NCBI GenBank assembly: GCA_964526915.1
Contig: CAZGMS010000072.1
Span: 7,341 to 71,340, forward strand
DNA length: 64,000 nt
From: an uncultured Nitrospirales bacterium
GTDB lineage: Bacteria > UBA10199 > JADGCS01
Direction of reading: 5' to 3'
In this document: piece by piece, positions 1,442-59,187 of the stretch
How positions within the stretch are numbered: position 1 is the stretch's first letter
Layout of the letters: every line of letters begins with the position of its first letter
Program-made: the position numbers and the translations under genes
The notes under the pieces: generated by a model
Database searches by the model: none
Told to the model about the DNA's origin: nothing
What the model saw: only the letters and a program-made list of their open reading frames with translations

Positions 1442-3328
1442 TCACACATTTTTTTCTTTGATTACCTCATCACACAGCGATGGGGCTAGTTGGTAGGTGG
1501 TCACAACCCGTTTGAGCAATTTATACAATTCGCTCATCTTACCGTCTTGTTTCGAAAGGGCCGCACATTCATTAATGTTTTTCAACAGTGAAGCAGAATC
1601 ATCGATTGATCCAATAGCCATGTTTATTTTTGGATGCTTGGTTGGACAAACTTTTTCTGTTTCATCGTACAGTTCTTCATAAAGTTTTTCACCTGGCCGC
1701 AAACCACAAAACTCAATCTTGATATCTGTGTTTGGCTCAAAACCGCAAAGTCTGATCATATTCACTGCCAAGTCCATGATTTTGACCTGCTTGCCCATAT
1801 CCAAAACAAAAATTTCGCCGCCGTTTCCCAACACACTGGCAAACAAAACGAGTTGCACGGCCTCGGGGATCATCATAAAATAGCGTTTGATGTCTGGGTG
1901 TGTCACCGTAATTGGCCCGCCCTGTTGAATCTGTTTAGTGAAAAGAGGGATCACCGAACCCTGACTGCCAATCACATTGCCAAAGCGCACGGCAATAAAT
2001 TTTGTTTTTGAATTTTCCTGAAAAACCTTGCACAGCAATTCAGCCATCCTCTTGGTCACACCCAAAATATTTGTGGGATTGACAGCCTTATCTGTTGAAA
2101 TAAAAACAAACCGTTCAACACCGTGCTCCTTTGATAACTCCGCCAGCTTTTTTGTGCCTTCAACATTGACAGAAATTGCCTGATAAATATTATCTTCTAA
2201 AATTGGCACATGTTTATAAGCCGCTGCGTGCAAAACGATTTGTGGCTGTGCCTGTTTAAAAAAACGACCCAGCGCCCAGTGATCAGTAATGTCACAAAGC
2301 ATGGGCACAAATTCCACATTGGGAAATTTTACCTGACATTCGCGGAACAAAAAATACAAAGGTGATTCTGCCTGATCTAGCAAATACACAATCGCTGGGC
2401 CCATTTGCGCCACCTGCTTTACCAATTCTTCACCAATGGAGCCTGCGGCCCCAGTCACCAGCACGCGTTTATTAACGTAAGTTTTGCGAACTGATGAGAG
2501 ATCTTCGATGATGGGTTCTCTGGCCAACAAATCTTCCAGTTTAAGATTCCTGATTTCAAACGTAGCAGAATTCTCAGAAAGTTCTGAAAGGCTGGGCATG
2601 ATTTTGACTTGGGCTTTGGCTTCAAAACATTTTTCAGCCAAACTTCTGAGCAGTGCTGGCCCAGCAGAGGGAATGGCAATCACAACCTCGTTCACCTCGT
2701 TGGCTTGGACAATCTCCACTATCTGATGGGTTGCCCCCAAAACCTTGACACCATGAATCTCATGATTTTTCTTCCAAGGATCGTCATCCAAAAAGCCCAC
2801 TACCTCATACTGTGTGGTGTCGTGTTTGACGCGCCGACAGGCAATGTCACCACCGTCACCGGCCCCCACAATCAGTACCCTTTTAAGTGTTGAGGGCACG
2901 GGGCCCACGTTCCTGTACAACCTAACCAATAAACGCAAACCACCAAAACTCAAAACAAACAACATGTGGTCCACCAGCAAAATGCGCAAGGCATCATGCC
3001 CCAAGCCCGTCACGAGCATGCTGACAATATTCAATGCGAAACTGACCGCCGCCACTTTGACGATCAGTATCAGATCGGAAATGCTCGAATACTTCCAAAT
3101 GCCGCGATTGACACCAAAAAGGTAAGCCAGCCCCAACTGGGACGCCACAATGATGAACCCAAAAAGGCCAGAAAACACTACCTTGCCGGGATACACCAGA
3201 TAATCTGAAAGCAGAAGATTGAAGACGATCAAGCCACAAAAGGCAGACAAGACCAATAAAAACCGGCCCCTATTGTTTCTCACAATTCTGTCGGTCAGGG
3301 TTTTAAAAAATAAGATTCGTTTTCTCAT
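1442..3328 (-). CDS. Membrane-bound UDP-HexNAc 4,6-dehydratase (CapD/WbpM/PglF-family polysaccharide biosynthesis protein)
   Basis: 628-aa ORF. Hydrophobic N-terminal helices are followed by two Rossmann motifs (VLIVGAGDGG, VLVTGAAGSIGEEL) and ISTDKAVNPTNILGVTKR. This architecture is typical of CapD/WbpM. Confidence 0.9.
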   Translation of the reverse strand: MRKRILFFKTLTDRIVRNNRGRFLLVLSAFCGLIVFNLLLSDYLVYPGKVVFSGLFGFIIVASQLGLAYLFGVNRGIWKYSSISDLILIVKVAAVSFALNIVSMLVTGLGHDALRILLVDHMLFVLSFGGLRLLVRLYRNVGPVPSTLKRVLIVGAGDGGDIACRRVKHDTTQYEVVGFLDDDPWKKNHEIHGVKVLGATHQIVEIVQANEVNEVVIAIPSAGPALLRSLAEKCFEAKAQVKIMPSLSELSENSATFEIRNLKLEDLLAREPIIEDLSSVRKTYVNKRVLVTGAAGSIGEELVKQVAQMGPAIVYLLDQAESPLYFLFRECQVKFPNVEFVPMLCDITDHWALGRFFKQAQPQIVLHAAAYKHVPILEDNIYQAISVNVEGTKKLAELSKEHGVERFVFISTDKAVNPTNILGVTKRMAELLCKVFQENSKTKFIAVRFGNVIGSQGSVIPLFTKQIQQGGPITVTHPDIKRYFMMIPEAVQLVLFASVLGNGGEIFVLDMGKQVKIMDLAVNMIRLCGFEPNTDIKIEFCGLRPGEKLYEELYDETEKVCPTKHPKINMAIGSIDDSASLLKNINECAALSKQDGKMSELYKLLKRVVTTYQLAPSLCDEVIKEKNV

Positions 3329-3418: not shown

Positions 3419-4546
3419 TTAAGCTTGCTCCAAAGCTTTCATGCGGGTAATGTATTCACGAAAAAAGGCCACAAAAACAGAGATAAACAAGGCCCCCATG
3501 AAAGAAATGATGCAAATCTGCGCTCTTTTGGGTGCAAATTTTTCCTCGGGAGGGATCGCGGGATCAATGACTGTAAACGAAATATCTTCTTTGGCCTCCT
3601 GTATTTTGGCCATTTCGTATTGTCCGGCAAGCGTCATCTGCACCTGCAAGAGCAGTTGGTGTTGTGCCATCAAGTTTTCCAAAAGAACAGATAATGGCAC
3701 CTTACCATTTGACTTTGATTCAGCAATTTTGCGTTCGTTTTCTGCCTTTTCTTTGAGAAGTTTTTCAACATCAACAGCATCAACACCACTCACAGTCTGT
3801 ACTGTCGTAGACACAGCTGGCAATAACGGCAAGACGCCAGTCCCAACGTTTCTTGAAAAATCATTGATCTCCATCCCGTTTTTCAAGCGGTCTTCCTTGT
3901 TTTGCGCCATTTGTTGTTCCAAGAATATCCGGTTTCGCTTGGCAGAAGTGAGTGTCTGTTTTCCCAAGAAAACCTGAAGTTCCCGCAAATAGGCGTTTGC
4001 AATTCTGGCCGAAAGCTGTGGATCCGTGGTTGCAACACTTACAGAAATCGAGCCCTCTTTTATATCCTCTATTACCGAAACCATTCCACTCATTAATAGT
4101 GTCACGGCTTTCTGTAATGTTGGCATTTCTTCTGGCGTTGTGGTCATCCATTGATTGGTCGTGTTATCCCAATAATCCATGAACAACACCTTCATTAGCT
4201 GTTCTTTTTCAATCACGGCCTCCGCGACTGAACGACTTTTTAATATCATTACTAATTTAGTGGTACTACTGGTTCCAGCACTCACCCCTGCAAGAGATGC
4301 CAGGCCACCAAATTGTGCTAAAAGAGAAGAAAAGCCTCCCATGGACTCATTAGCACTTACAGGAAAAATAACCGCTGTCGATCGATATTGTTTGTCCATC
4401 AGGCCACTACCAATAACCGCCACAACAGACACAATGAGAAGGGCAAGAAAGATCATGAGCTTGTTCTTGTTGACTACCCTCAAAATATCCAGGATATTTG
4501 TTTCTCCACTATGCCCCTTGGCAGTTGTACCAACATTTTCTGTCAT
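3419..4546 (-). CDS. wzz: Polysaccharide chain-length determinant (Wzz/PCP-1-like, no kinase domain)
   Basis: 375 aa. One TM helix near each end (LMIFLALLIVSVVAVIGSGL; ICIISFMGALFISVFVAFF) flanks a long polar, helix-rich middle. Located in an O-unit locus. Confidence 0.7.
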   Translation of the reverse strand: MTENVGTTAKGHSGETNILDILRVVNKNKLMIFLALLIVSVVAVIGSGLMDKQYRSTAVIFPVSANESMGGFSSLLAQFGGLASLAGVSAGTSSTTKLVMILKSRSVAEAVIEKEQLMKVLFMDYWDNTTNQWMTTTPEEMPTLQKAVTLLMSGMVSVIEDIKEGSISVSVATTDPQLSARIANAYLRELQVFLGKQTLTSAKRNRIFLEQQMAQNKEDRLKNGMEINDFSRNVGTGVLPLLPAVSTTVQTVSGVDAVDVEKLLKEKAENERKIAESKSNGKVPLSVLLENLMAQHQLLLQVQMTLAGQYEMAKIQEAKEDISFTVIDPAIPPEEKFAPKRAQICIISFMGALFISVFVAFFREYITRMKALEQA

Positions 4547-4591: not shown

Positions 4592-5794
4592 CTAGCGTGT
4601 AGCCTTTGATACAACATCAGTCAATGTAGAACAAGTCCTATGTAACTCATTTTGCGTTAAGGTTGGATGAACAACAAACATCACACTGGTTTCGCCAAGC
4701 TGTTTTGCCAGTGCAAGACGTTTTTCTGGCCGCAGCCCTGTAACGTCAAAAGCTTTTTCCAGATAAATCTCTGAACACGAACCCGTGTAACAGGGAACCC
4801 CCTGCTTGTTGATTTCGGCTACGATACGATCTCGTGACCACCCCGAAGACAATGCTTCGGGCCTCACATACACATAACACTTATACCAAGCATGTTCTAT
4901 ATGAGAAGGAACTTCAGGAACTCTCAATGCAGGACATTGTCTTGCCGCGGCCAAGATTGCCTGTGCATTTGCTCTGCGCGCTAAATGCCACTGATCTAGT
5001 TTTTTTAATTGAATTCTTCCAATCGCCGCCTGCATTTCAATCATGCGCCAGTTGGTACCAATGGAGTGATGCACCCACTTAAAACAATTGCCTTCTTCAC
5101 CATTATTCATCGCTTGATACGATTTCCCATGATCCTTATAAGACCAGGCATAATTCCAAACCTCTCCATCGTTTGTCGTGAGCATCCCTCCCTCACCACC
5201 TGTGGTCATGATTTTATCCTGACAAAACGACCAAGCACCCACATGGCCGATACTTCCCACTTTTTTCCCATTGTACTCTGCCCCATGGGCCTGAGCACAA
5301 TCCTCGATCACAAAAAGCCCGTGGTCTTTCGCAAGTGTTATGATTGCATCCATCTCACAAGGCCAACCAGCAAGATGCACAGGGATAATCGCCCTGGTTT
5401 TTTTTGTTAATACCTTCGCAATTGAATCGGCTGTGATGTTGCCACTATCCGGATCAACATCAGCAAATACAGGCTTCGCACCGACTGTGATCACACAACC
5501 TACGGAGGCAATAAAACTACGAGGCGTCACCACCACCTCATCACCGGGCCCCACTCCCAGTGCCTTAAGTGCAAGTTCCAGGGCCACCGTCCCATTCGCC
5601 AGAGCCACAGCATGCTTTACACCAGTATAGCCAGCAAACTCTTCCTCGAACCTCCTGCACTCTGCTCCAGTCCAATAATTTATTTTGCCAGATCGCAAGA
5701 CCTGCGAAACAACATCAATTTCGCCTTGTTCAAAACATGGCCAACAAGAACTTAAACTGTTATCTGATAACATTATGTTTTGTTTGGTTTTCAT
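4592..5794 (-). CDS. DegT/DnrJ/EryC1/StrS-family sugar aminotransferase (PglE/WbpE-like)
   Basis: Motifs GTVALELALKALGVGPGDEVVV, VIEDCAQAHGAEYNGKKVGSIG and SFCQDKIMTTGGEGG. The longest ORF starts at 5833, but the Met at 5794 gives an ATGA overlap with the upstream stop (tcat at 5791-5794). Confidence 0.85.
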   Translation of the reverse strand: MKTKQNIMLSDNSLSSCWPCFEQGEIDVVSQVLRSGKINYWTGAECRRFEEEFAGYTGVKHAVALANGTVALELALKALGVGPGDEVVVTPRSFIASVGCVITVGAKPVFADVDPDSGNITADSIAKVLTKKTRAIIPVHLAGWPCEMDAIITLAKDHGLFVIEDCAQAHGAEYNGKKVGSIGHVGAWSFCQDKIMTTGGEGGMLTTNDGEVWNYAWSYKDHGKSYQAMNNGEEGNCFKWVHHSIGTNWRMIEMQAAIGRIQLKKLDQWHLARRANAQAILAAARQCPALRVPEVPSHIEHAWYKCYVYVRPEALSSGWSRDRIVAEINKQGVPCYTGSCSEIYLEKAFDVTGLRPEKRLALAKQLGETSVMFVVHPTLTQNELHRTCSTLTDVVSKATR

Positions 5795-6429
5795 TTGCTT
5801 GTTGCTTTTGTTATTCTGGCTGGCACGCCACATGCTGTAACAGAATCTGGCAGATCAGAAATCACAACGCCCCCCGCTCCAACTATTGAATTCTCACCAA
5901 TGACCAATCCCGGAATCGCCACACTGCCAATTCCCATAAAAACTCTATTACCAACTTTCACATTCCCTGCCAATTTTGCTCCGGGACCGATATGAACATA
6001 ATCACCAATGATACAATCATGGTCAATCACAGCGCCAGTATTAACGATACAATGTTTGCCTACAACAGCACCTGGTTGAATAACTGCTCCCGCAAAGATC
6101 ACAGTGCCACAACCAATTTTAACAGAAGGATGCACATAGGCACTTGGGTGAACAACTGTCACCCAAGTGTTATTCATTAATTCTTTAGCAATTTTTTCTC
6201 GAAATCGATTGTCGCCAAACGCCATGAGCAAAGAACATTCCTTGTTTTTGGCCATTTCACTTAAAGGGCCTACAACATTAACACCTAAAACAGTTTTGTT
6301 TCTCTTTGATTCATCGTCATCATATAGGCATTCAACTTTAAACCCACTATCAAGCAAAGTGGCCACGACAACTTTCGCATGCCCACCTGCACCCAAAATA
6401 TAGACCGGATCATTTTGCTTCATCAACAC
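5791..6429 (-). CDS. Hexapeptide-repeat amino-sugar N-acetyltransferase (PglD/NeuD family)
   Basis: 212 aa. N-terminal VYILGAGGHAKVV domain followed by left-handed beta-helix repeats (IGDYVHIGPGAKLAGNVKVGNRVFMGIGSV). Confidence 0.85.
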   Translation of the reverse strand: MLMKQNDPVYILGAGGHAKVVVATLLDSGFKVECLYDDDESKRNKTVLGVNVVGPLSEMAKNKECSLLMAFGDNRFREKIAKELMNNTWVTVVHPSAYVHPSVKIGCGTVIFAGAVIQPGAVVGKHCIVNTGAVIDHDCIIGDYVHIGPGAKLAGNVKVGNRVFMGIGSVAIPGLVIGENSIVGAGGVVISDLPDSVTACGVPARITKATSK

Positions 6430-7042
6430 CCCTCTTGATTGAGCCTGTAAATTTTGGCATGGTCACATGCCCCTCAGCATTGATGCCTTTTCTTTGAAAC
6501 AAACGCACTATGGTGATAAATAATATTTTGATATCCAGCAAAATACTTTGATGATCAACATACCAAACATCCAGCTTGAATCTCTCTTCCCACGAAATGG
6601 CATTACGCCCATTAATCTGCGCCCAGCCAGTGATCCCTGGTTTAACCACATGCCGCCTTGTCTGTTCAGGACTGTAAAGCGGCACATACTCCGGAAGAAG
6701 AGGCCGTGGCCCCACAAAACTCATGTCGCCTTTCAATACATTCCACAACTCTGGCAGTTCGTCTAAACTCATTTTTCGCAAAAAAATACCAACTGCAGTC
6801 AATCTCTCTTCATCTGACAATAAATTGCCCTTCATATCACATTGAGTTTTCATTGTTCTAAACTTATACAACACAAATTTTCTTGTGTTCATGCCAACAC
6901 GTTGTTGTTTGAATAACATGTTACCTGGTAAAGTGACCAGCAAGACAAAGGAAATAAATACCAATAATGGAGCACAAAAAACCAAACCAAAAAAGGAAAG
7001 AAAGAAATCTGACGCTCTCTTAAATTTATAACTCTGTACCAT
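6410..7042 (-). CDS. Small monotopic phosphoglycosyl transferase (PglC-type 'bacterial sugar transferase'); initiating enzyme no. 1
   Basis: 210 aa. N-terminal re-entrant helix, then KFRTM, SLDELPELWNVLKGDMSFVGPRP and PGITGWAQ motifs. Confidence 0.9.
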   Translation of the reverse strand: MVQSYKFKRASDFFLSFFGLVFCAPLLVFISFVLLVTLPGNMLFKQQRVGMNTRKFVLYKFRTMKTQCDMKGNLLSDEERLTAVGIFLRKMSLDELPELWNVLKGDMSFVGPRPLLPEYVPLYSPEQTRRHVVKPGITGWAQINGRNAISWEERFKLDVWYVDHQSILLDIKILFITIVRLFQRKGINAEGHVTMPKFTGSIKRGVDEAK

Positions 7043-11868: not shown

Positions 11869-13338
11869 TCATCTTTTACAGATTGATTTTAGTAAGAATA
11901 CTATTTTGGATAATCTTGAAGGTAACACGATCTTCAATACAAGATAATATAATGCAAACCAAACAATAATCAAAAATGCCACAACCGCCACCCTCCAATT
12001 TAGTGAGTGGTGAACTCCAATAATATGATAGAGAAAAAAAACTAATGCTGATGGAATACTATTTACAAAAAAAACAACACCTGAAATTTTTATGAATTTA
12101 TAAATAGAAAAAGAATAGTAATGAGTCACCAACAATTGACCAAACAACCTATCAACAAAACCGTAAAGGCCAAAAGACAAGGCCACTCCAGTCAAATGCC
12201 ACATACTCCCAAAGCAAATAAAAGCTGGCATCACCACCACTCTGAATAGATTGAGCACTGTTTTAATGTGAGGTTTTCCGCTACTGAAGACCAAACTACT
12301 GATTATTCCGCCCCCACAAGTTATAAAAATTGAATAAATCGACATCAGACGAACTAACACAGTAATATTTGACCATTTTTGACCAAAAAATAACAAAACA
12401 ATAAAATCTGCAAAAATGATAACCAAAATTGGAAAAGGCAGAGATACTAAAGATGTTATCATCAGGGACTCCCAAAAATTATCTTCAATCTTTGCCTTGT
12501 TATCTTGTGATCTTGAATAAATAGGAAATAACACTTTATCGTACACACCATTGAGTAATGCAGGAAAAAATGTGACCATTCTGTGGGCTAGGTTGAAAGC
12601 ACCAACAGACGACATATCAAGAATTTTTCCAATAAAGAAAGTGTCAAACCTTGCCGACGAGGTAGCAAGAACTCGTCCAACTGATACCCAAATGCCAAAA
12701 GCTAATAGTTGTTTTGCCTCGAGAAATGATCCAAAACTTTTTGGAAGATATCGTGTGAACTGATAGCCAATAATTAGTGACAAGACTGAAGCAACAATTT
12801 TTCCAAAAATAATGCTGTGTGGTCCATAATGTTTCACCGCAAATATCACTGTAACAAATCCATAAACAAGGTGATTGCAAACATTGATAAAAGAAATTTG
12901 TTTAAACTTAAGAGACCTTTGCAATAAACAAGTCTGCAACGATGATAGTCCGATAAACACATAAGTAACAGCTGACCACCTCATCAAACCAAGTAATTGC
13001 TCTGTATTATAGAAACTTGCTAAAAAGGGAGCCAAAAAGAAAATTAGTAACGAAACAAACATTGTAAAAAACACAACGCAACTGAATGCGCTATCAATAA
13101 CAGTATCGTTGATGTCTTTTCTTTGAACAATAGCGATGGAAACTCCAAACTCAGAAAACACCTGCAAAATCACCTGTATGGCCAACACTACCATCACCAC
13201 ACCAAAATCAGCAGGCGTTAACAATCTTGCTAAAACAATACTCAGAATGAGAAGTATACCATTTTGAATTGAAGAACTTGAAAAAAACCAAAAAGCCCCT
13301 TTGACGGCGATTTGTGAATTATTTACTTTCATATACAC
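11869..13338 (-). CDS. wzx: Wzx-type O-unit flippase (MOP superfamily, Polysacc_synt family); flippase no. 1
   Basis: 489 aa and polytopic. N-terminal region GILLILSIVLARLLTPADFGVVMVVLAIQVIL...IVQRKD is typical of lipopolysaccharide biosynthesis/Wzx proteins. Confidence 0.8.
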   Translation of the reverse strand: MYMKVNNSQIAVKGAFWFFSSSSIQNGILLILSIVLARLLTPADFGVVMVVLAIQVILQVFSEFGVSIAIVQRKDINDTVIDSAFSCVVFFTMFVSLLIFFLAPFLASFYNTEQLLGLMRWSAVTYVFIGLSSLQTCLLQRSLKFKQISFINVCNHLVYGFVTVIFAVKHYGPHSIIFGKIVASVLSLIIGYQFTRYLPKSFGSFLEAKQLLAFGIWVSVGRVLATSSARFDTFFIGKILDMSSVGAFNLAHRMVTFFPALLNGVYDKVLFPIYSRSQDNKAKIEDNFWESLMITSLVSLPFPILVIIFADFIVLLFFGQKWSNITVLVRLMSIYSIFITCGGGIISSLVFSSGKPHIKTVLNLFRVVVMPAFICFGSMWHLTGVALSFGLYGFVDRLFGQLLVTHYYSFSIYKFIKISGVVFFVNSIPSALVFFLYHIIGVHHSLNWRVAVVAFLIIVWFALYYLVLKIVLPSRLSKIVFLLKSICKR

Positions 13339-13512: not shown

Positions 13513-14706
13513 TCACCTAACGATCTTTTTCAATCCTTTAAAAAGGGGACTTATTATGGAGAAAATGAACGGATAAGGATCGCGCCAAGACATTGGTTCA
13601 ATTGTATAGCCTCGTCCCATCAGGCTTTTTATATAACCAAAAGGTCTCAGATATTCCTTGTTTTTTATAATGGCTATGAGATCACCAGCCAAATACCACC
13701 AGAGAATCTTATCAGGGTATTCCTGTCTGAATTTCGTTAATACAGGCAAGAAACCCTGTAGAGCCTCTTGGTACATCAAATAAGGCAGATTGATGCCACA
13801 TCTAATGGCAAGGCTATTTGACATACTCATGCGTCCATTAATTTCCATGAGTTTGAATTGACCATCGCGGGGATCTAATTTGAACTGAGTTCCCGCATAT
13901 CCATAATAGCCAATTTTACGCACGAGTTTGAGACTATAATCTAATAAGGTATCGTTCCAGGTTGTTTCTACTAAAGTGCCTGATAAAAATTTTCCCTGGG
14001 ATCTCTTTTTGTAATTGATCAATAACCCTGTCGGTTGACTGTTCTTGTTAAGTGTCATTAACACAGTCTCGATCCTCTCAAACTCTCCAGGAATAAGATC
14101 TTGCAGTAGTAATTCTCCACCAAATCCATCAAAGTGCTTATAATTTCCTAGCAATTCTCCTTCATGATTACAGATAACTCCTTTTGTCCCATAATGGCTC
14201 AACAACGTACTGGAATGCTCTGCCTTCATGAATAAAGGATAGCTGAGTTTCTCTTCCTTGGAATTCAGCAGACTTTCCAACTCAGATTGGCAAGTAATAT
14301 AATGTGTTTTTGGTATGGGAACACCTAATTCCTCAGCAATTTTGTAAGTGCGCCTCTTTTCCCGCACCAACTTTACTGTTTCCCAATCGGGAAAAGTTGT
14401 CTTCATTTCAGCTTTTAGTTCATTATGTCTTTTTGCCAAAACATCCAAATAACTGTCATTACCAGCTACAATCAATACAGATTCTACGCCAATTTCTCGA
14501 TCAAACCACTTGTTCAGTTTTTCGATGAAATCGACATCCTTTGAATCCAATTGCAATATTTTTTTTACAAAACGGGATTTTGTACACAAACCTTTACCAT
14601 CTGGAGAAACCATGTAAATTGGAATATCATATTTGCATAGACCTCTTATCGCACCAAAAGCCGAAATATGATCACCAAAGATGATTACGGGGGGTGTGTT
14701 TTTCAT
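13513..14706 (-). CDS. ATP-grasp carboxylate-amine ligase
   Basis: 397 aa. Pre-ATP-grasp N-terminus VIIFGDHISAFGAIRGLCKYDIPIYMVS and C-terminal GYAGTQFKLDPRDGQFKLMEINGRMS. ATGA overlap with the upstream decarboxylase gene. Confidence 0.75.
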   Translation of the reverse strand: MKNTPPVIIFGDHISAFGAIRGLCKYDIPIYMVSPDGKGLCTKSRFVKKILQLDSKDVDFIEKLNKWFDREIGVESVLIVAGNDSYLDVLAKRHNELKAEMKTTFPDWETVKLVREKRRTYKIAEELGVPIPKTHYITCQSELESLLNSKEEKLSYPLFMKAEHSSTLLSHYGTKGVICNHEGELLGNYKHFDGFGGELLLQDLIPGEFERIETVLMTLNKNSQPTGLLINYKKRSQGKFLSGTLVETTWNDTLLDYSLKLVRKIGYYGYAGTQFKLDPRDGQFKLMEINGRMSMSNSLAIRCGINLPYLMYQEALQGFLPVLTKFRQEYPDKILWWYLAGDLIAIIKNKEYLRPFGYIKSLMGRGYTIEPMSWRDPYPFIFSIISPLFKGLKKIVR

Positions 14707-15866
14707 CGAATGCCATCCTCAGTTAATAATTTCATGAATGCTTCCTTTTGTTCCCTAAGGTTGAAGTCCAGTGAACCAAGGTCACTCCGAATGCCTTTTC
14801 TGACGCGAATGTCAATAAAAGCAGAACCTTCAGTTGATAATAACGTTTTGATTGCATCGCGAAGAGCTTGTTCCGTTTCAACCGCCGCACCAACAGTCTT
14901 ATAACCCGAATTGTTGGCAATAGCTGTCAAATTTGCCACAAAACCAGCTGAGGGCTGGCCACCAACAGATTCGTGAGCACCATTATTCAAAACCACATGT
15001 AAAAAGTTCGGCAACTTGAGTTTTCCTGCCGTCGTCAAAGAACCCAAATGCATGATAGCCGCCGCATCTCCATCCAAACAAACAACAAGTCTCTTTTTTT
15101 GTGCCAAGGCAATACCAGAAGCAATTGAGCTGGTATGGCCCATAGCACCCACATTTAGAAAATCCTGATTGTGACCAACCCCGCTCAAGTTGCGTAAGCC
15201 GTAAAGCTCGCGTGTCGCTCTGCCTGTTGTTGCAACAAATATCGCTTCTTTCGGCACACACTGAAGAACACACTCAATCGCATTTTCCCGAGTCATGTTG
15301 TAAATACTATCTGAACCCTCCTCTTCTTTTTTCTTTCCTTTTTCAAACATCCCTTTCTTAGCAAGAAGCGCAACAGGGCCACATATCTTTTGAGCAGTGC
15401 GAACCGCCCACCTGGCGGCATCAAACGACCCCTCACCATCATTCTCTATTATTCTGAAGGGAATATCCATAGCCTCCAGTAATAAGGGCGTCAGTTCGCC
15501 CTGCTTTTTATGCTGTGCATGATCTGTAACGCCTGGATCACCGCGCCAGCCAATCAGCAATATCATTGGTATACCATACACCTCTTTGTTGGTGAGCGAA
15601 AGCAAGGGGTTCATGGCATTGCCTATTCCAGAATTTTGCATATATACCAGGGGCACGGTGCCCGTGGCAAAATGATAACCCGCGGCAAGTGCAACAGCAT
15701 TACCTTCGTTCGCCGCGATGACATGACGCTCACTGGGCAAATGAGCTTCGACATACTTGCAGAATTCATTAAGAAGTGAATCCGGCACGCCTGTTATAAA
15801 CGCAACCCCCTCATTTTGCAGGCACTCATAAAATGCTTTCTGATCGATCATAATCAATGTCCTCAC
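14703..15866 (-). CDS. ThDP-dependent 3-substituted-pyruvate decarboxylase (phosphonopyruvate/sulfopyruvate decarboxylase, fused alpha-beta type)
   Basis: 387 aa. N-terminus QKAFYECLQNEGVAFITGVPDSLLNEFCKYV is typical of Ppd/ComDE. ThDP motif CLDGDAAAIMHLG...NNGAHESVGGQ. Confidence 0.8.
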   Translation of the reverse strand: MRTLIMIDQKAFYECLQNEGVAFITGVPDSLLNEFCKYVEAHLPSERHVIAANEGNAVALAAGYHFATGTVPLVYMQNSGIGNAMNPLLSLTNKEVYGIPMILLIGWRGDPGVTDHAQHKKQGELTPLLLEAMDIPFRIIENDGEGSFDAARWAVRTAQKICGPVALLAKKGMFEKGKKKEEEGSDSIYNMTRENAIECVLQCVPKEAIFVATTGRATRELYGLRNLSGVGHNQDFLNVGAMGHTSSIASGIALAQKKRLVVCLDGDAAAIMHLGSLTTAGKLKLPNFLHVVLNNGAHESVGGQPSAGFVANLTAIANNSGYKTVGAAVETEQALRDAIKTLLSTEGSAFIDIRVRKGIRSDLGSLDFNLREQKEAFMKLLTEDGIR

Positions 15867-17215
15867 AACAAACGAAATAGACTATGGAAGTCTCTTTGTA
15901 CATTCCACACAATCTTTATGATTTCACGGCTTTCTTCCCCGGATTTATTTCCATACGCAGACAACGTGATAAACTTCTCTTTGATTTCATCATCTGAAAG
16001 CGGATTTTCAGGTTCTCCTTTGGGGAAATCAACTCTTTCAGTGTAAGATGCTCCATGACAAGTCTCAATTGTAACGATGGCGGCACGCTTTTGCGGCACT
16101 AGGGCTGTGATTTTCTCATCAGCGCAAACAACTATTCTTTTTGCTAGTGAAATGATCTCCGCATTGTTCACATTTTCTGCTGTAAACTCATCAAGGCCAG
16201 ATTTACCTTTCACAATGGCAACGGCCACACTGTATGGAATGCTCATTTTTGCTGAAGAGATGCCTCTGATTTCCGTGTGATCATGTTTGCCTATAACCCC
16301 TTTGTAAGTGGTCACCTTGATGCTTTTGATGTCAGAGACACAAAGACCATGGTTCAATTTGATCTTCAGTGTGGCTTCTATAGCTGGATGCGTGTGCCGA
16401 CAAGAAGCATATGACTTGAAATAAACTTTTTCGATCGAAAAAGGATCTCTATCATTTCTTTCCAAATGAGCCAAATCATGCTCTTTGGCCATCATCGATA
16501 AAAACCCTGTAGGGCCAGCGAGCACGTCATCAAGCCCCTTAAAACATGCTCTGCCCATGATTGATGATAACAAGCCAACCAGCGCAGCACGGCCTACATT
16601 AAATGGTTTTAAATCAGATCCATCTTCAATCACCTTAAGCATTCCTGATGCAGAAATTGCGGCCGCAGACAAGGCATCTTTCAGTTGAGTTTTGGTAAAA
16701 CTCAACATGGCCCCAATGCCCACGGCTGCCCCAAGGGAACCACAAGTGGCCGTAGGATGATAGCCACAATTGTAATGAGCCGGTTGCATGGCACTGGCAA
16801 TGCTAATTGCAGCTTCATAACCAATAATAACACCTTTAAGTAAAGCAGTGCCCTCGACTTTTTCTTTCTCAGCAACAGGTAACAGAGCCGATATAATGGG
16901 TGAACCTGGATGCAAAACACCAAAACGCACGCCATCGTCTAATTCAGCAATATGAGCACTAAGACCATTCATCAAAACAGCATTGATAAGACTCGCTTTT
17001 CTGTTAAAACCAATCACTGTGGCATCACTTTGAGTGTCATTCAAATATTTTAATAGCTCGTCACCTTTTTCTTTCATCATCCGTGCCCCAGCAAAAGTGG
17101 CACCCAGATAATCCAGCAAACACCTTTTCGCTTGTAACACAACAATATCGGGAAAATCCGTATGGCTCAAATGATAGAGAGTATCGATGAATTTATCAGT
17201 AAGGTTATCGGTCAT
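15863..17215 (-). CDS. MmgE/PrpD-family protein (2-methylcitrate dehydratase / cis-aconitate decarboxylase superfamily)
   Basis: 450 aa. N-terminus FPDIVVLQAKRCLLDYLGATFAGARMM and overall length fit PrpD-family proteins. Confidence 0.8.
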   Translation of the reverse strand: MTDNLTDKFIDTLYHLSHTDFPDIVVLQAKRCLLDYLGATFAGARMMKEKGDELLKYLNDTQSDATVIGFNRKASLINAVLMNGLSAHIAELDDGVRFGVLHPGSPIISALLPVAEKEKVEGTALLKGVIIGYEAAISIASAMQPAHYNCGYHPTATCGSLGAAVGIGAMLSFTKTQLKDALSAAAISASGMLKVIEDGSDLKPFNVGRAALVGLLSSIMGRACFKGLDDVLAGPTGFLSMMAKEHDLAHLERNDRDPFSIEKVYFKSYASCRHTHPAIEATLKIKLNHGLCVSDIKSIKVTTYKGVIGKHDHTEIRGISSAKMSIPYSVAVAIVKGKSGLDEFTAENVNNAEIISLAKRIVVCADEKITALVPQKRAAIVTIETCHGASYTERVDFPKGEPENPLSDDEIKEKFITLSAYGNKSGEESREIIKIVWNVQRDFHSLFRLL

Positions 17216-17226
17216 GTATTATTATT

Positions 17227-18183
17227 TTATCGGAAATAAAACTGGAAATAGCTGGGGCATTCTGATTTTGTATCTTCCCATGCCGCAGTAAACGCACTCA
17301 CTATTGTTTCAGGTAGAGGTCCTTTTTTGACTGCAAAAAGATTCTGCTTTAACTGGTCCCTATTTGAAGCACCTATTATCATTCCATCACCTTCGCTTTT
17401 GTCAAGGAGTGAATGAAAAGCAAGCCACCGATAGGCCGCTTCAGCGGTCTCTATTCCTGATTTTCGGCATGCTATTGTAAGAACATTGACTGCCTCAAAA
17501 TAGGATTTTTTCCAATACCTGTCACGATAACTCTGAAGTCGCGCAAAGCGACCAGACATGGGCTTTTCGTCAAAATTGATGTGTTTTCCTGACAACATGC
17601 CACCAGCCAGAGGATTGAATGCGTAAAAACGCATGCCCAACTTTCTTAAAGCGGGAAACAACTCGCCCTCAACGTTGCGGGTCAATCCGTTATACATCCC
17701 CTGATACACACTTGGCCTGAGCCAGCCACGTTCTTTGCAAAGATGCCATATGTCCACAACCATCCAGGCGGGAAAATTACTTAATCCCAGTTCCTTAATT
17801 TTCCCCTGTTCATGGAGGTTTGCACACGCTTCCAAGGCCCCCTCAATGGGGGTTTGAGCATCTGGAAAATGAAGATACAAAATATCAACCGAATCACGGC
17901 ACAGGCGGCGCAGTGATTCTTCAAACTGCATGATCACCGCAACACCATCAAGTTTGCCCGTAACCCGGGGATGAACTTTGGTCGCAAGACAAAGAGAATC
18001 TTCCGTAAACTCATTCAGAAAAGTGCCAAGAATTTTTTCGGTTTCGCCTTCGTTATATACGTAAGCCGTGTCCAATTCATGGTAACCTGCTTCAATGAAG
18101 CATTTCACCATGGCACGACTACCCTCGGTATCCACCTGAGGACCAAAAGTCATTGTTCCCAATATCAGTTTCATCATATCCAT
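17227..18183 (-). CDS. Aldo-keto reductase
   Basis: 318 aa. LGTMTFGPQVD and ELDTAYVYNEGETEKILG match the AKR catalytic Asp/Tyr region. Confidence 0.85.
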   Translation of the reverse strand: MDMMKLILGTMTFGPQVDTEGSRAMVKCFIEAGYHELDTAYVYNEGETEKILGTFLNEFTEDSLCLATKVHPRVTGKLDGVAVIMQFEESLRRLCRDSVDILYLHFPDAQTPIEGALEACANLHEQGKIKELGLSNFPAWMVVDIWHLCKERGWLRPSVYQGMYNGLTRNVEGELFPALRKLGMRFYAFNPLAGGMLSGKHINFDEKPMSGRFARLQSYRDRYWKKSYFEAVNVLTIACRKSGIETAEAAYRWLAFHSLLDKSEGDGMIIGASNRDQLKQNLFAVKKGPLPETIVSAFTAAWEDTKSECPSYFQFYFR

Positions 18184-18198: not shown

Positions 18199-19089
18199 CT
18201 AAATTGACCCTTTTGCTGAGCACAAAGCATCGCTATCATAACTGTCAATAACTCGTTTGACAAGATTGACCTGCTTGGCTCGCTTTTTTGCCTCAGCCAC
18301 AGTCGTTTCCCAACCATGCGTTTTGGCAACTGAGCCTCCTGTTTTAAGATATATAGGGGAACCCACCCGTATCATTTCTGGCACTTCATAATGGCGAATA
18401 AAACCACCGGACGACGCGGGATTTTCTGTATGAATATCGATCGGGATGCTGATGGCTTGCCTTATAGCGGCAAGCATTTGCAGTTGAATGTCCCTGACCG
18501 GGTTGATCGAATTTGCTCCTACATTTTCCAGAAGTTTGGCGGAACAAGGATTGCCATGACCGCAATGGGCAGATATTTTGAATTTACAATCAGAAGGAAG
18601 CTCACCTTGCTTGCGCATTTCATCTAACACCCACAAAAGTCCTTCATCATAAATCAAAAAACCTCTACACCCCAATTTGCCAGCACGTTTAACATCCTCG
18701 ATGGCACGAACGATTTGTTCCTGCCCACGGAGCCGGAGCCCCATTTTTTGACCTTCCTCCGTGTGAACTGATGCGCTCGTATCGTAAGTTGCCCGCGGAC
18801 CGATGGCCAGCACGAGTTCCACCTGCCATTGTTTTGCCAACGCCACCATTTCATTTATTTCATCATCAGTCAGAATCATGATGCCCTTTGTTTGCGTAAC
18901 GCGGTGGATAACGGCACCAAAGGTATCCAATTCTTCAAGCAAAGCCTTCATTGAGCCGGGTCCCTGTATACCAGGCACCTCAAACCTGTACTGCGCGCCA
19001 TCCGCGAATCGCTTTGCAGACGATGGCAGATCATACGCATCTCCTGATGGTAATCCTATTTTATTAAGAAACAACCTGGTCTCTTTCAT
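18199..19089 (-). CDS. Conserved-looking hypothetical enzyme, family not recognised (possible alpha/beta-barrel)
   Basis: 296-aa ORF with tight operon spacing (15 and 40 nt). Alternating beta/alpha-like pattern with KISAHCGHG and IPIDIHTENP. It is not a PEP mutase by motif, and it lacks the Cys signature of U32 proteins. Confidence 0.45.
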   Translation of the reverse strand: MKETRLFLNKIGLPSGDAYDLPSSAKRFADGAQYRFEVPGIQGPGSMKALLEELDTFGAVIHRVTQTKGIMILTDDEINEMVALAKQWQVELVLAIGPRATYDTSASVHTEEGQKMGLRLRGQEQIVRAIEDVKRAGKLGCRGFLIYDEGLLWVLDEMRKQGELPSDCKFKISAHCGHGNPCSAKLLENVGANSINPVRDIQLQMLAAIRQAISIPIDIHTENPASSGGFIRHYEVPEMIRVGSPIYLKTGGSVAKTHGWETTVAEAKKRAKQVNLVKRVIDSYDSDALCSAKGSI

Positions 19090-19129: not shown

Positions 19130-20005
19130 CTACCCCAGAACAATACTATTTTTTCTTGGATCGTAGCAACATCCCATCCGCAGGCTGACAATGCGCACAC
19201 CGCTTGCCCTTTGTGGCCCAATTTCTACAAATGAATTTAATGCCGTAATGCTACCCCCAATCCCCAGCGGCCCACAAAAAGTATTGTTCAGTGTTGCCGT
19301 AATCAATGCTTCAATCTCGTTTTCGTTTCCAAAAGTCTTGTTTGCCATAGCATCGAGCATGAGGCAAGTCGCTTCATAATGTGTTCTTCCTATCCCAACA
19401 GCAGGAACGCAGGGTGTACATCCAAGCAAACCTACCATTTCTACTGCCCAACCGGCAATTTCCGTGCTGATTCGAGAAGAATCGTGGTGGTGAAATACTC
19501 TATAGGTGCGGGATCGTATTTCCGGCCCCCCTCCAAGCATCATCACAGTCAAACGAAGCTGACTGCCTTTGATTGTTTTCATTCTAATCGGGGCAGATGT
19601 CAACATTCCCGAATCTTCGTAAAGCCCCTTTGTTTGTACGAGCCTTTCCATATCATTGCCACACACAGCCATCGGACGGCCTGGTAAAGCTCGCAAACCT
19701 GCTACAATACCATTATCGACAATTTCTAAAAGTTTTCCAACATTGCCTTCAATGTCAGCCTCATCACCTACCTCAAGCAAAACATGGGGCACCCCTGTAT
19801 CGTTGCATAAAGGTAATTTGTTTTTTTCTGCGACGATCGCATTTTCTAATATCATCTCAAGAATCCACTTCGCTTTCTGCTCTGTTTCCCTCGCAATGGC
19901 ATTCTCATAGGCCAGACGCTGATCATGACGAAAACTTGTGCTCGCTTTTATCAATGCCTCGGCAGACGCTTCTAGAATTTCAGATAGTTTTATTGCCACG
20001 CACAC
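19130..20005 (-). CDS. Fe-S hydro-lyase, tartrate/fumarate subfamily, alpha subunit
   Basis: 291 aa. LPLCNDTGVPHVLLEVG corresponds to the (Q/C)DTG motif of class I fumarase/TtdA. Additional Cys residues are available as cluster ligands. Confidence 0.75.
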   Translation of the reverse strand: MCVAIKLSEILEASAEALIKASTSFRHDQRLAYENAIARETEQKAKWILEMILENAIVAEKNKLPLCNDTGVPHVLLEVGDEADIEGNVGKLLEIVDNGIVAGLRALPGRPMAVCGNDMERLVQTKGLYEDSGMLTSAPIRMKTIKGSQLRLTVMMLGGGPEIRSRTYRVFHHHDSSRISTEIAGWAVEMVGLLGCTPCVPAVGIGRTHYEATCLMLDAMANKTFGNENEIEALITATLNNTFCGPLGIGGSITALNSFVEIGPQRASGVRIVSLRMGCCYDPRKNSIVLG

Positions 20006-20020: not shown

Positions 20021-20551
20021 TCATTTGACATGAAAAATTGATTCCCCGTTGGCCGCGGCTATGATGCCGGGCAAGCCACGAATCGTTAATTCATGCAACG
20101 CTTCCATGCCCTCTTCTTCAAACGCTATCACCCTTTTAGAAATCAATCGACTCTGAAAAAGAGCTGATGTCGGCGGCACAACAATAAAAATGGCCCCATG
20201 TCTGGATATATCTTTGACTGTTTGCTTTTTAAGAACACCTTTTCCGATATGCAACCGAACACCCGCTTCAGACAGAATACCCATCGTTCCTTCGATTTCT
20301 TCTTTATTGCTTGAGGTTGGGCCAAAACCGGCTGGGCTAAAAGCGGCATGCATAAAAGCCGCACCTTCCATGGTAATCGGTAGTTCCGTTATCGTGCCAT
20401 CTTTTATCATTTTAGCAATCTTCGGCAATATGGCATCTCTGGCGGTATAAACCACACCGTGTATTTCCACACGACTACCGACTAGCACATTCGACAAATC
20501 AGTCCTCACAGGTGTTTCAATTTTAAGAAGCAAATTAACACATCCTCTCAT
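20021..20551 (-). CDS. Fe-S hydro-lyase, tartrate/fumarate subfamily, beta subunit
   Basis: 176 aa. GVVYTARDAILPKIAKMIKDG matches the G-x-I-Y-T-x-RDAAH-type motif of class I fumarase C-terminal domain/TtdB. Adjacent to the alpha subunit. Confidence 0.75.
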   Translation of the reverse strand: MRGCVNLLLKIETPVRTDLSNVLVGSRVEIHGVVYTARDAILPKIAKMIKDGTITELPITMEGAAFMHAAFSPAGFGPTSSNKEEIEGTMGILSEAGVRLHIGKGVLKKQTVKDISRHGAIFIVVPPTSALFQSRLISKRVIAFEEEGMEALHELTIRGLPGIIAAANGESIFHVK

Positions 20552-20593: not shown

Positions 20594-21736
20594 TTATTTT
20601 AAGATGAGTTTTAAGTAGGTTGCTTCATTTTCAATAACTCCGTATGCTTTTGCCCGACTGATGATTTTTTTCGCCCAGTGTTTGTGTGGGTTTATTTCAT
20701 TCATTTTATTGGCCTTCACACTTTTAACCACACCTCCTGGTGTTTCTAATATTTGTAGGGCATCCTCAAATTCTTCCCTGATCACCGTCTGCATGGCATT
20801 GACATATTTGGCGTGCGAGGGGTGAATGATTGTTTTACCGACAAATCCATTGGCCTTATCAAGAATAACTTCCCTCATCAAGCCATCAACCGCTTCATTT
20901 AAGATCGGACTTCTGGTCAACAAAGAACGATGAATATCATCGGCCAATAAATTATCAAGATTATCCCCTTTGTGCACCAAAAAATACTCCCACACTGGTC
21001 CAGACACCGTGTAGTTATCTTCCTCTCTGCTGAAAAAATTCAACACATCAGACAAACAATCTTTGACTGTCAAGATATCATAAATGGAGTAGTTGATCCC
21101 TCGCCTCACTCCAAACATCGATGAAATATCAGTTCCTCCAATCCTGATATTCAGAACAAGTTTTTTAAAAGGCTCCATCATTGTTCTGATCTGACTCAAC
21201 TCATCAGTTCTCAATTCCTTATACGCTATTGTTTTTCCCTCAAGAATGGGCATGCCATACAAAGAAACTTTTAATTTACTATTCAGAGATTCAAGACAAT
21301 TGAAGTACTCTTGACAATTATGACTACAGAACTTGGGGAACGCAAATCCAGACAAAACGTTAGATTGTTCGCTCGTTAACTTCTCAACAAACCCCTTGAA
21401 TTGCTCTGGATGACGCACGCGCAGAAAGATTAATGGTATTTCATCGTGTGTGATCGCCCCTAAAGCCAAGGCTTCTGCAATTTTGTTCAATTGACTTAAC
21501 ACACTGTTCTCGGCCACTGGCAAGATCATTTCATCAACAGCATCTTCAAAGTCCATGACAATCGATGTTGCCTCAAGCACATCCTTTTTTAATAATTTAT
21601 CAACAATATTTTGCGTGCCCGGCATATAGAGTGTGGCGCCTAGACAATACTGCAACAAATCTTTATCAGTGAATTTGTTAAATTCTATTGGTTCCAAAAA
21701 AAATTGGGTGTTTGGATGATATCTGTGGTGCTTCAT
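20594..21736 (-). CDS. HpcH/HpaI aldolase / citrate lyase beta (CitE)-like lyase, long form
   Basis: 380 aa. Motifs GATLYMPG, IVMDFEDAV, IFLRVRHP and GFVGKTIIHPSHAKYVN parallel the CitE family motifs. Confidence 0.7.
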   Translation of the reverse strand: MKHHRYHPNTQFFLEPIEFNKFTDKDLLQYCLGATLYMPGTQNIVDKLLKKDVLEATSIVMDFEDAVDEMILPVAENSVLSQLNKIAEALALGAITHDEIPLIFLRVRHPEQFKGFVEKLTSEQSNVLSGFAFPKFCSHNCQEYFNCLESLNSKLKVSLYGMPILEGKTIAYKELRTDELSQIRTMMEPFKKLVLNIRIGGTDISSMFGVRRGINYSIYDILTVKDCLSDVLNFFSREEDNYTVSGPVWEYFLVHKGDNLDNLLADDIHRSLLTRSPILNEAVDGLMREVILDKANGFVGKTIIHPSHAKYVNAMQTVIREEFEDALQILETPGGVVKSVKANKMNEINPHKHWAKKIISRAKAYGVIENEATYLKLILK

Positions 21737-32340: not shown

Positions 32341-33206
32341 GTATTTTCCAAAACCCTCAATAGATATTCACCGTAACCAGATTTTAACAATGGCTGCGCA
32401 AGTTGCCTGAGTTGCTTGGCAGAAATGAATCCCATTCTGTAGGCGATTTCTTCTATGCAGGCAATTTTCAGACCCTGTCGATCTTCAATAGTTTTTATAA
32501 ACATCGCTGCATCGGCCAAAGAAGCATGAGTGCCCGTATCTAACCAGGCAAAACCTCGCCCCAACATGCGCACATTCAGTTTGCCTTGGGCCAAATAGGC
32601 AGTATTGACGTCTGTGATTTCCAGTTCCCCCCGAGGAGAAGGCTTGATTGTTTTTGCAATTTTAGCGGCCACATTGTCATAAAAATACAATCCCACAACG
32701 GCATAATTTGATTTGGGTTGCTCCGGCTTTTCCTGCAAAGAAATGGCTTTCATATTTTTGTCAAATTCAACTACTCCATAGTTCTGAGGATTGTTGACAT
32801 AATAGCCAAATATTGTTGCGCCGTTCACGTTCACTGAAACATTTTTCAGCAATCCCTGAAGCCCATCGCTGTAAAATATGTTATCTCCCAAAATCAGGCA
32901 AACAGAATCACCTGCAATAAAATTTTCACCCAAAATAAGAGCCTCCGCCAAACCACGCGGCTGTTCTTGAACTTTGTAGTTAAAAGAAAGTCCCAATTTA
33001 CTGCCGTCACCAAAAAGCATCTTAAATCGGGGAAGATCTTCTGGTGTGCTGATGATGAGAATTTCACGAATGCCAGCAAGCATAAGTGTGGAAAGAGGGT
33101 AATAGATGAGCGGTTTGTCGTACACCGGTAACAGCTGTTTACACGCTACTTGCGTTATTGGATACAACCTGGTTCCAGAGCCACCTGCTAAGATAATGCC
33201 TTTCAT
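32337..33206 (-). CDS. rmlA: Glucose-1-phosphate thymidylyltransferase
   Basis: 289 aa. [18 protein letters not shown] and LGDNIFY. ATGA overlaps on both sides. Confidence 0.95.
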
Positions 33207-36966: not shown

Positions 36967-36968
36967 AG

Positions 36969-55393: not shown

Positions 55394-55394
55394 T

Positions 55395-56645: not shown

Positions 56646-56667
56646 GGTAGCTTCCTCCTATGATGAT

Positions 56668-57489: not shown

Positions 57490-57518
57490 AGTTTACCTCT
57501 CCACTCTGATAGGGTTAA

Positions 57519-59147: not shown

Positions 59148-59187
59148 CTTTTAACCACAATATTTATCAGTTATCCTGACAAGGAAA

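Follow-up and report, generated by a model that had tools for sequence, protein, structure and literature searches.

Gene content and order of the cassette

The DNA analysed here is a stretch of 64,000 nucleotides from an uncultured Nitrospirales bacterium (contig CAZGMS010000072.1), hereafter the window, and its element of interest is a seven-gene cassette around a thiamine diphosphate (ThDP)-dependent decarboxylase of the phosphonopyruvate decarboxylase (Ppd) type. We define the cassette as a PF15617 C-C lyase, the two subunits of an Fe-S hydro-lyase (FumB and FumA), an uncharacterised protein named U296, an aldo-keto reductase (AKR), a PrpD-like protein and the Ppd-like decarboxylase. In the window these genes are transcribed in the following order and lead into an ATP-grasp ligase and a flippase.

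20594..21736, minus strand: TIM barrel of the PF15617 'C-C_Bond_Lyase' family, CitE/malyl-CoA-lyase/CLYBL type, first gene of the cassette (PF15617, 363 bits)
20021..20551, minus strand: beta subunit of the Fe-S hydro-lyase (Fumerase_C, 70 bits; TtdB/FumA C-terminal family, below cutoffs)
19130..20005, minus strand: alpha subunit of the hydro-lyase, class-I Fe-S fumarase/tartrate-dehydratase-like (Fumerase, 165.6 bits)
18199..19089, minus strand: U296, uncharacterised 296-aa TIM-barrel protein (Pfam-negative; barrel from an AlphaFold2 model)
17227..18183, minus strand: AKR7-like aldo-keto reductase (Aldo_ket_red, 190 bits)
15863..17215, minus strand: MmgE/PrpD-family protein of the IRG1/iminodisuccinate-epimerase-like branch (MmgE_PrpD_N and MmgE_PrpD_C)
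14703..15866, minus strand: Ppd-like ThDP decarboxylase with fused alpha and beta domains (TPP_enzyme_N and TPP_enzyme_C; TIGR03297)
13513..14706, minus strand: ATP-grasp ligase (ATPgrasp_Ter and CPSase_L_D2 matches)
11869..13338, minus strand: MOP/Wzx flippase directly downstream of the ligase (Polysacc_synt_3, 227 bits; MOP flippase family)

An earlier reading made from the letters of the window (the sequence-only reading) had placed PrpD, an AKR and Fe-S hydro-lyase subunits beside the decarboxylase, and Pfam matches bear these neighbours out; the PF15617 lyase, U296 and the ATP-grasp ligase were absent from it. The PrpD-like gene ends in an overlap with the decarboxylase GTG at 15866. The decarboxylase gene in turn shares an ATGA with the start of the ATP-grasp gene, an overlap that implies translational coupling of these two.

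The decarboxylase open reading frame (ORF) is 387 aa long from the GTG, as the sequence-only reading had it with the minus strand left unstated, and its translation contains the N-terminal peptide quoted there, VAFITGVPDSLLNEFCKYV. An in-frame ATG at 15851, with GAGGA 8 nt 5' of it, gives a 382-aa form, which is also the form of a protein-database entry 100% identical to the decarboxylase; judged from these features, the true start is probably this ATG. Both ThDP-binding domains are matched (TPP_enzyme_N, E 7e-17; TPP_enzyme_C, E 9e-18), and the protein passes the phosphonopyruvate decarboxylase model TIGR03297 and misses the sulfopyruvate decarboxylase alpha and beta models TIGR03845 and TIGR03846 (87 and 94 bits versus cutoffs of 148 and 221.5), in agreement with its original description as a fused ThDP enzyme of the Ppd/sulfopyruvate-decarboxylase type. 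Among solved structures, its nearest chains belong to a putative split Ppd (both subunits), with benzoylformate decarboxylases next, and its nearest species representative is a metagenome-assembled genome (MAG) of the Desulfatiglandales (75% identity). No homologue was found in E. coli genomes, which thus offer no tie to a solved O-antigen structure, and a scan of viral sequences gave no match.

Absence of PEP mutase from cassette loci

Phosphoenolpyruvate (PEP) mutase (PepM) and Ppd are normally encoded side by side, since decarboxylation pulls the unfavourable mutase equilibrium. A Pfam scan covering all main ORFs of the window gave no match to PEP_mutase (PF13714), ComA, ComB or Ldh_2 (ComC), and when the 64 kb were translated in all six frames and searched with a PepM hidden Markov model (HMM) based on five genuine PepM domains, no match appeared even at E<10. 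The earlier statement that neither PEP mutase nor ComA/B/C lies in the window is thus confirmed.

Related loci were collected with peptide patterns taken from the query, one genome per species, and the resulting 47 loci were compared by tblastn and ORF clustering. Cassette genes flank the decarboxylase in all loci in which it has 49-75% identity to the window enzyme (42/42), and the PepM HMM found no PepM in any of these within about 10 kb on each side (0/42). The same HMM recovers exactly five PepM genes, directly upstream of five non-cassette Ppds (5/5 loci). These comparators (n=5) are 38-45% identical to the window decarboxylase and lie in loci from which the cassette is absent; their PepM is fused to a cytidylyl- or nucleotidyltransferase domain, and where downstream sequence is available an Fe-alcohol dehydrogenase (Fe-ADH) and nucleotidyl- and glycerophosphotransferase-like genes follow. 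This is the classical architecture for 2-hydroxyethylphosphonate (HEP) and 2-aminoethylphosphonate (AEP). Neither Fe-ADH nor such nucleotidyl-/cytidylyltransferase clusters occur among the cassette loci, and the window has the AKR7-like reductase instead.

Distribution and phylogeny of the cassette

Wherever the contig was long enough, the full set of U296, C-C lyase, AKR, PrpD-like protein and FumB/FumA was present with a sole exception. In this case, a Prevotella MAG (L016, 1004-11122), a decarboxylase of the cassette clade is accompanied by the PrpD-like protein and FumAB, and the 21 kb yielded neither U296 nor the C-C lyase nor the AKR; either the cassette has been rearranged or degraded here, or the locus represents a third variant. 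Cassette loci span at least seven phyla, with Bacteroidota, Bacillota, Desulfobacterota, Victivallales, Cloacimonadota, Actinomycetota, Bdellovibrionota and others represented, and the same arrangement was seen on a Desulfatiglandales chromosome (L001; OY759599), in Prosthecochloris sp. CIB 2401 (CP016432) and on several metagenome contigs (L052-L055). Besides this Prosthecochloris, carriers of the cassette with assemblies from isolates include Adlercreutzia sp. ZJ304 and Clostridium sp. AM58-1XD. Of the related loci, 25 have DegT aminotransferase genes and 22 have Bac_transf genes. Most loci also hold ATP-grasp genes beside the cassette; these fall into two types, one present in 28 loci, and the type of the window is related to the second. 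On contigs L052-L055 the seven genes come without visible glycosyltransferases or an ATP-grasp ligase, once adjoining an AMP-binding ligase.

The sequence-only reading had proposed to place the decarboxylase phylogenetically. By neighbour joining, with a split ComDE-like enzyme as the root, the cassette decarboxylases group in a clade of their own, apart from the PepM-linked Ppds: they are monophyletic in 50/50 bootstraps, and the PepM-linked enzymes (n=5) are paraphyletic. As far as these sequences can tell, a cassette clade nested beside paraphyletic PepM-linked Ppds is the pattern expected from recruitment of a Ppd to a new role. Polar residues invariant in the cassette clade, and not conserved in PepM-linked Ppds, are Q122, K179, R216, H244, H273, N294 and E299.

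Variant cassettes

Three related loci carry variants in which the decarboxylase and the AKR are both replaced.

L049 (Algoriphagus sp. NG3): D-2-hydroxyacid dehydrogenase in place of decarboxylase and AKR; hydro-lyase of the ADSL/CMLE-like Lyase_1 type
L051 (Tissierella sp. MSJ-40): D-2-hydroxyacid dehydrogenase in place of decarboxylase and AKR; hydro-lyase FumAB
L056: Ldh_2 dehydrogenase in place of decarboxylase and AKR; hydro-lyase of the ADSL/CMLE-like Lyase_1 type

All three retain the C-C lyase, the PrpD-like protein, U296 and the ATP-grasp ligase, and adjoin RmlA/RmlB/DegT amino-sugar genes. The best model for the Ldh_2 of L056 is L-sulfolactate dehydrogenase, at 306 bits versus a cutoff of 500. 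Because the variants swap decarboxylase and AKR for 2-Hacid_dh or Ldh_2, we take the branch-point compound to be a 2-oxo acid. Most simply, the core would supply this acid, which then has two fates: reduction to the 2-hydroxy acid, or decarboxylation followed by reduction, giving an omega-hydroxy acid with one carbon fewer.

Both variants without FumAB have a Lyase_1/ADSL_C enzyme and, paired with it, a 'Cyclase' protein of PF04199 (L049, 12975-15368; L056, 14473-16860). The variant Lyase_1 resembles 3-carboxymuconate cycloisomerase, adenylosuccinate lyase and XcbD, and scores below the respective cutoffs except for purB. This pair may replace the Fe-S hydro-lyase in aerobes.

Enzymes accompanying the decarboxylase

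The AKR matches human and rat AKR7A2/A3 over its full length (residues 6-314, E 4e-85, about 48% identity). AKR7A2 is a succinic-semialdehyde reductase, and the AKR7 family reduces acid-aldehydes. In 37 cassette AKRs the catalytic residues D38, Y43, K69 and H105 are conserved, and so is R222, which corresponds to Arg231 of AKR7A1; the position of AKR7A1 Arg327 is Q in the window and K or R in most cassette AKRs. We take Arg231 and Arg327 of AKR7A1 to be binders of the substrate carboxylate.

The PrpD-like protein belongs to the superfamily by Pfam and scores far below the models for 2-methylcitrate dehydratase proper, at 30-41 bits against PrpD equivalogs with cutoffs of 458-950; its best solved relatives are B. 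subtilis IRG1, iminodisuccinate (IDS) epimerase and cis-aconitate decarboxylase, and D93, H102, H153, K203, K267 and Y304 are conserved in 39 cassette sequences. Three cysteines of the hydro-lyase alpha subunit, C67, C196 and C279, are shared by 36 cassette sequences, which fits a class-I Fe-S fumarase/tartrate dehydratase; the subunit falls below the fumarase and tartrate dehydratase equivalog cutoffs. The PF15617 family profile matches CLYBL, malyl-CoA lyase and citrate lyase beta weakly, via the ED and IHP motifs. To our knowledge, only di- and tricarboxylate chemistry has been described for the CitE, IRG1/PrpD and class-I fumarase families, whose catalytic residues and Fe-S cysteines the cassette enzymes retain. 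The ATP-grasp ligase has remote similarity only to solved structures, of the biotin-carboxylase type.

U296, the most conserved member

In the loci, U296 is better conserved than any other protein of the cassette, with 67-80% identity between phyla. It has more than 6000 homologues, the top 120 at 77-86% identity, none with a Pfam domain, and the family comprises 1074 representatives at 50% clustering. While U296 of the window missed the Peptidase_U32 threshold (PF01136; 12.8 bits, E 0.07, threshold 22.4), a relative 30% identical to it reached 25.5 bits and passed, which marks the U296 family as a distant offshoot of U32. In the O2-independent hydroxylases of U32 (UbiU/V, TrhP, RlhA), a four-cysteine motif, CX6CX15CX3/4C, binds a [4Fe-4S] cluster (PMC6747719). 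This motif is not conserved in the U296 family, whose signature consists of acidic residues and many arginines. A role of U296 as a U32-type Fe-S hydroxylase, turning a vinyl C-H via the enol into a 2-oxo acid, was set aside because the cysteines are unconserved across the family, and also in view of relatives in sugar-acid and 2-oxo-acid contexts.

An AlphaFold2 model of U296 computed from the alignment shows a beta/alpha barrel pattern at moderate quality (predicted local distance difference test, pLDDT, 66; predicted template modelling score, pTM, 0.71); a single-sequence AlphaFold model (pLDDT 35) was not used. Sequence and profile searches against PDB gave no match for U296. The idea of a cryptic PepM, in the shape of U296 or of the C-C lyase, was rejected on homology, the hhalign probability being <1% for both and the PepM HMM negative.

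Distant relatives of U296 were also found outside the cassette. The 30%-identical relative lies directly upstream of a split ComDE-like ThDP decarboxylase (L058, 1927-3992), whose scores fall between the ComDE and Ppd models and reach the cutoff of neither, and no other cassette gene is present there; the pair is possibly a two-gene module. On an Enterobacter plasmid a U296 relative is followed by a 2-hydroxyacid dehydrogenase and an aminotransferase (the PLSDB gene tables being incomplete), and two further distant relatives lie in sugar-uptake or sugar-acid loci. Since relatives of U296 repeatedly adjoin enzymes that consume 2-oxo acids, we infer that U296 makes the 2-oxo acid or catalyses the step just before it, possibly in a reaction of the aldolase or lyase type. 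It had been suggested that the neighbouring dehydratases make the substrate of the decarboxylase; the most conserved partner of the decarboxylase, however, is U296.

A proposed route to a hydroxy-acid decoration

Taken as a whole, the cassette most likely makes a hydroxy-acid decoration of a cell-surface polysaccharide, and not a phosphonate or coenzyme M. More specifically, we somewhat favour a scheme in which a neofunctionalised Ppd-family decarboxylase acts on a carboxy-substituted 2-oxo acid, the AKR reduces the resulting acid-aldehyde, and the ATP-grasp ligase joins the hydroxy acid by an amide link to an amino sugar of the polysaccharide. In a first step, the C-C lyase, the IRG1/PrpD-like protein, the Fe-S hydro-lyase and U296 would build an uncommon 2-oxo acid with at least one further carboxylate, with U296 putatively acting closest to the 2-oxo acid. 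The Ppd-like enzyme would then remove the C1 carboxylate to leave a carboxy-aldehyde, as the chemistry of its family suggests, the extra carboxylate of the substrate presumably occupying the place of the phosphonate or sulfonate group in known substrates. The AKR7-like reductase would turn the aldehyde into an omega-hydroxy acid, and finally the translationally coupled ATP-grasp ligase would activate the remaining carboxylate and amide-link it to the amino sugar of the repeat unit, which the flippase would export.

The ATP-grasp ligase is found in both versions of the cassette, so a carboxylate must survive the decarboxylation, and this favours a 2-oxo-dicarboxylate over phosphono- or sulfopyruvate. 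Candidate products are 3-hydroxypropionate (from oxaloacetate), 4-hydroxybutyrate (from 2-oxoglutarate), 2,4-dihydroxybutanoate (from 4-hydroxy-2-oxoglutarate) and 3-hydroxyisobutyrate (from 3-methyloxaloacetate), among which the evidence does not discriminate; plain oxaloacetate or 2-oxoglutarate is an unlikely substrate because four dedicated upstream enzymes are conserved.

Several observations weigh against this scheme. The window decarboxylase scores 419.5 bits (E 1e-125) on TIGR03297, well over the trusted cutoff of 312.5, and this model does not separate cassette decarboxylases (387-419 bits, with 387.5 for another member) from PepM-linked ones (436-475 bits). The 47 residues invariant across PepM-linked and cassette sequences are all common to both, and only a single position is conserved differently in the two groups, so that no clear specificity switch is visible; with these shared invariants and the non-separating model, sequence alone is no proof of a change of substrate. 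Likewise, no core step is assignable to a specific reaction from sequence, and the fold matches of U296 are generic TIM barrels only, aldolases and pyruvate kinase included, and are uninformative. Phosphonopyruvate and sulfopyruvate are known to undergo reduction, to phosphonolactate and sulfolactate respectively, hence the swap to 2-Hacid_dh or Ldh_2 in the variants fits phosphonopyruvate or sulfopyruvate equally well. The sample of related loci is biased to close relatives because the peptide patterns were taken from the query, each cassette locus was viewed to about 10 kb per side and mostly on MAG contigs, and on L052 the cassette lies outside an obvious polysaccharide locus.

Alternative explanations

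The sequence-only reading had left two options, a different 3-substituted pyruvate as substrate or a mutase encoded elsewhere, and the comparative evidence favours the former: the neighbours are kept in 42/42 loci, PepM is found within about 10 kb in 0/42 of these versus 5/5 of the others, the decarboxylases form their own clade, the reductase resembles AKR7, and the variants point to a 2-oxo-acid branch point. We regard it as improbable that the enzyme is an ordinary Ppd in a split pathway, with PepM elsewhere in the genome, the AKR reducing the phosphonoacetaldehyde so formed to 2-hydroxyethylphosphonate and the organic-acid genes serving otherwise. Such a split would accord with the score above the TIGR03297 trusted cutoff and with family-invariant residues that are all shared with PepM-linked Ppds; however, besides the usual adjacency of PepM and Ppd and the separate decarboxylase clade, the cassette is devoid of the cytidylyltransferase and Fe-ADH of PepM loci, and its coupled ATP-grasp ligase has no obvious use for a phosphonate alcohol.

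It is also quite unlikely, in our estimate, that the cassette makes or degrades a free organic acid of an itaconate/citramalate type or one like 4-hydroxybutyrate and that its placement among polysaccharide genes is incidental. The cassettes of L052-L055, with no visible glycosyltransferases or ATP-grasp ligase and in one case with an AMP-binding ligase next to them, would suit a free acid, as would the distant U296 relatives in catabolic sugar loci. On the other hand, most of the 42 loci have the cassette among flippase, glycosyltransferase, Bac_transf, DegT and ATP-grasp genes, and in the window it sits inside a single-strand 64-kb polysaccharide region with its last gene overlapping that of the ligase.

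A route to phosphonopyruvate or sulfopyruvate independent of PepM, in which U296 or the PF15617 barrel forms the C-P or C-S compound and the decarboxylase or the dehydrogenases handle it as in established phosphonate and sulfonate pathways, strikes us as very improbable: the pairing of U296-family and Ppd/ComDE-type proteins that persists at 30% identity without other cassette genes (L058), the likeness of the L056 Ldh_2 to L-sulfolactate dehydrogenase (below its cutoff), the resemblance of the L049 Lyase_1 to XcbD of bacterial coenzyme M synthesis as well as to ADSL and CMLE, and U296 itself, an Arg-rich barrel some 296 aa long that has an acidic site and counts pyruvate kinase among its fold matches, would all agree with it, and the ATP-grasp ligase, which calls for a surviving carboxylate, speaks for a 2-oxo-dicarboxylate. 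Just as doubtful is the related idea that Ppd/ComDE-type decarboxylases have their ancient partner in the U296 family, a so far unrecognised enzyme making 3-substituted pyruvates and, in the most far-reaching version, a non-homologous PepM analogue or a sulfopyruvate-forming enzyme. If it were true, the 'Ppd' clade would mark a PepM-independent C-P or C-S route in gut, rumen and sediment anaerobes that is invisible to pepM-based genome mining.

Comparison with known systems

The PepM-Ppd (AepX/AepY) module of phosphonate-decorated glycans such as the Bacteroides fragilis capsule and the PepM-Ppd-Fe-ADH route to HEP use the same fused ThDP family, and the cassette, too, lies within polysaccharide loci and continues with an aldehyde-processing enzyme. 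It differs from them in having no PepM, AEP transaminase, Fe-ADH or phosphonate cytidylyltransferase, in its AKR7-like reductase, and in its partners, which are CitE-like, IRG1/PrpD-like and fumarase-like enzymes and U296, alongside a decarboxylase of a separate clade. ComDE, which acts with ComA/B/C in the synthesis of coenzyme M, belongs to the same superfamily and catalyses the same type of reaction on a pyruvate with an anionic 3-substituent, and the Ldh_2 of one variant cassette has sulfolactate dehydrogenase as its best model; the window protein, however, is fused and not split, falls below the ComD/ComE cutoffs and has no ComA/B/C in the window.

The cassette also mirrors the synthase-dehydratase-hydratase-lyase order, ending in a 2-oxo acid, of the methylcitrate cycle (PrpC-PrpD-Acn-PrpB) and of itaconate metabolism (IRG1/CAD, CLYBL/Ccl, mesaconase), as it likewise unites a Claisen-type C-C lyase/synthase and a hydro-lyase with a member of the PrpD family and a TIM barrel some 296 aa long. 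Yet only the PrpD-family member is homologous, and the other three are non-orthologous: a CitE-like enzyme stands for the citrate-synthase-like one, a class-I fumarase-like enzyme for aconitase, and U296 for PrpB. All members score far below equivalog cutoffs, and the context of the cassette is biosynthetic. The combination of 2-oxoglutarate decarboxylase with AKR7A2, which yields 4-hydroxybutyrate, follows the same logic of ThDP-dependent decarboxylation of a 2-oxo-dicarboxylate and reduction of the acid-aldehyde by an AKR7-type enzyme; the cassette enzyme differs in being of the Ppd type, with a substrate that is probably neither plain 2-oxoglutarate nor oxaloacetate.

Attachment of the product has parallels as well. 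ATP-grasp amidoligases decorate capsular sugars, for example those of the Campylobacter jejuni Cj1438 type, which are ATP-dependent carboxylate-amine ligases encoded in polysaccharide loci beside amino-sugar genes, as is proposed for the cassette ligase, which matches solved ATP-grasp structures remotely only. The 3-deoxy-L-glycero-tetronic acid on the perosamine of Vibrio cholerae O1 is a small hydroxy acid serving as an N-acyl group of a glycan, although its acid-forming genes, the rfbKLMNO set, are wholly different from the cassette. The decarboxylase family and the decarboxylate-reduce-attach logic are known, and the partner set, the likely class of substrate and the U296 family are undescribed; in a full-text literature search, neither the cassette nor PF15617 in glycan loci nor Ppd clades devoid of PepM turned up.

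Because a large and widespread clade passes the NCBI Ppd equivalog threshold with no PepM nearby, surveys based on Ppd annotation would put the number of phosphonate producers too high, above all in Bacteroidales and Clostridia of the rumen and gut. With its seven genes, the cassette looks like an undescribed pathway linking organic-acid enzymes with the decoration of glycans, and it offers a testable case of enzyme evolution in which a decarboxylase of phosphonate- or sulfonate-bearing 2-oxo acids may be recruited to a carboxylate analogue. An unusual acidic or hydroxy-acid surface substituent in gut and rumen anaerobes would bear on immune recognition, phage receptors and the prediction of glycan structures.

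Genomic setting in the window

The window is a long run of polysaccharide genes with glycosyltransferases, two flippases, Wzz, several DegT aminotransferases, RmlA/B-like proteins and NeuB. All gene-like ORFs of at least 120 aa are on the minus strand across the 64 kb, and the GC skew is uniformly negative. As at least two flippases are present (11869-13338 and 49115-50425), several polysaccharide loci are apparently concatenated in one orientation. Beyond the flippase next to the cassette, Pfam matches identify the following genes for amino sugars and for initiation.

1442-3328, minus strand: PglF-like dehydratase
3419-4546, minus strand: Wzz
4592-5833, minus strand: DegT aminotransferase
5791-6429, minus strand: PglD-like acetyltransferase
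6410-7042, minus strand: Bac_transf

An AAA_14/DUF4143 ATPase gene (131-1276), unrelated to the decarboxylase, lies at the downstream end of the polysaccharide region. Another ATPgrasp_Ter ligase (44497-45681) shares 23% identity with the one linked to the cassette, and its neighbours are proteins with a PHP domain (43797-44522) and with DUF7033 (42431-43795). A heparinase II/III-like protein (33203-34816) precedes a 735-aa protein in which a Zn-ADH-like (zinc-dependent alcohol dehydrogenase-like) domain is fused to a GFO/IDH/MocA oxidoreductase (34813-37020), and the same region holds a FemAB-like protein (39099-40118) and an asparagine-synthase homologue (47160-49046); these four genes may serve uronic-acid or amide modification. 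Four consecutive radical-SAM genes (54458-60594) also lie inside the polysaccharide region, the first two (54458-55393 and 55395-56645) of the SPASM or plain type and the other two (57519-59147 and 59188-60594) combining B12-binding and radical-SAM domains. The run is flanked by methyltransferases and a DegT aminotransferase, and may carry out C-methylation or another radical tailoring of a sugar.

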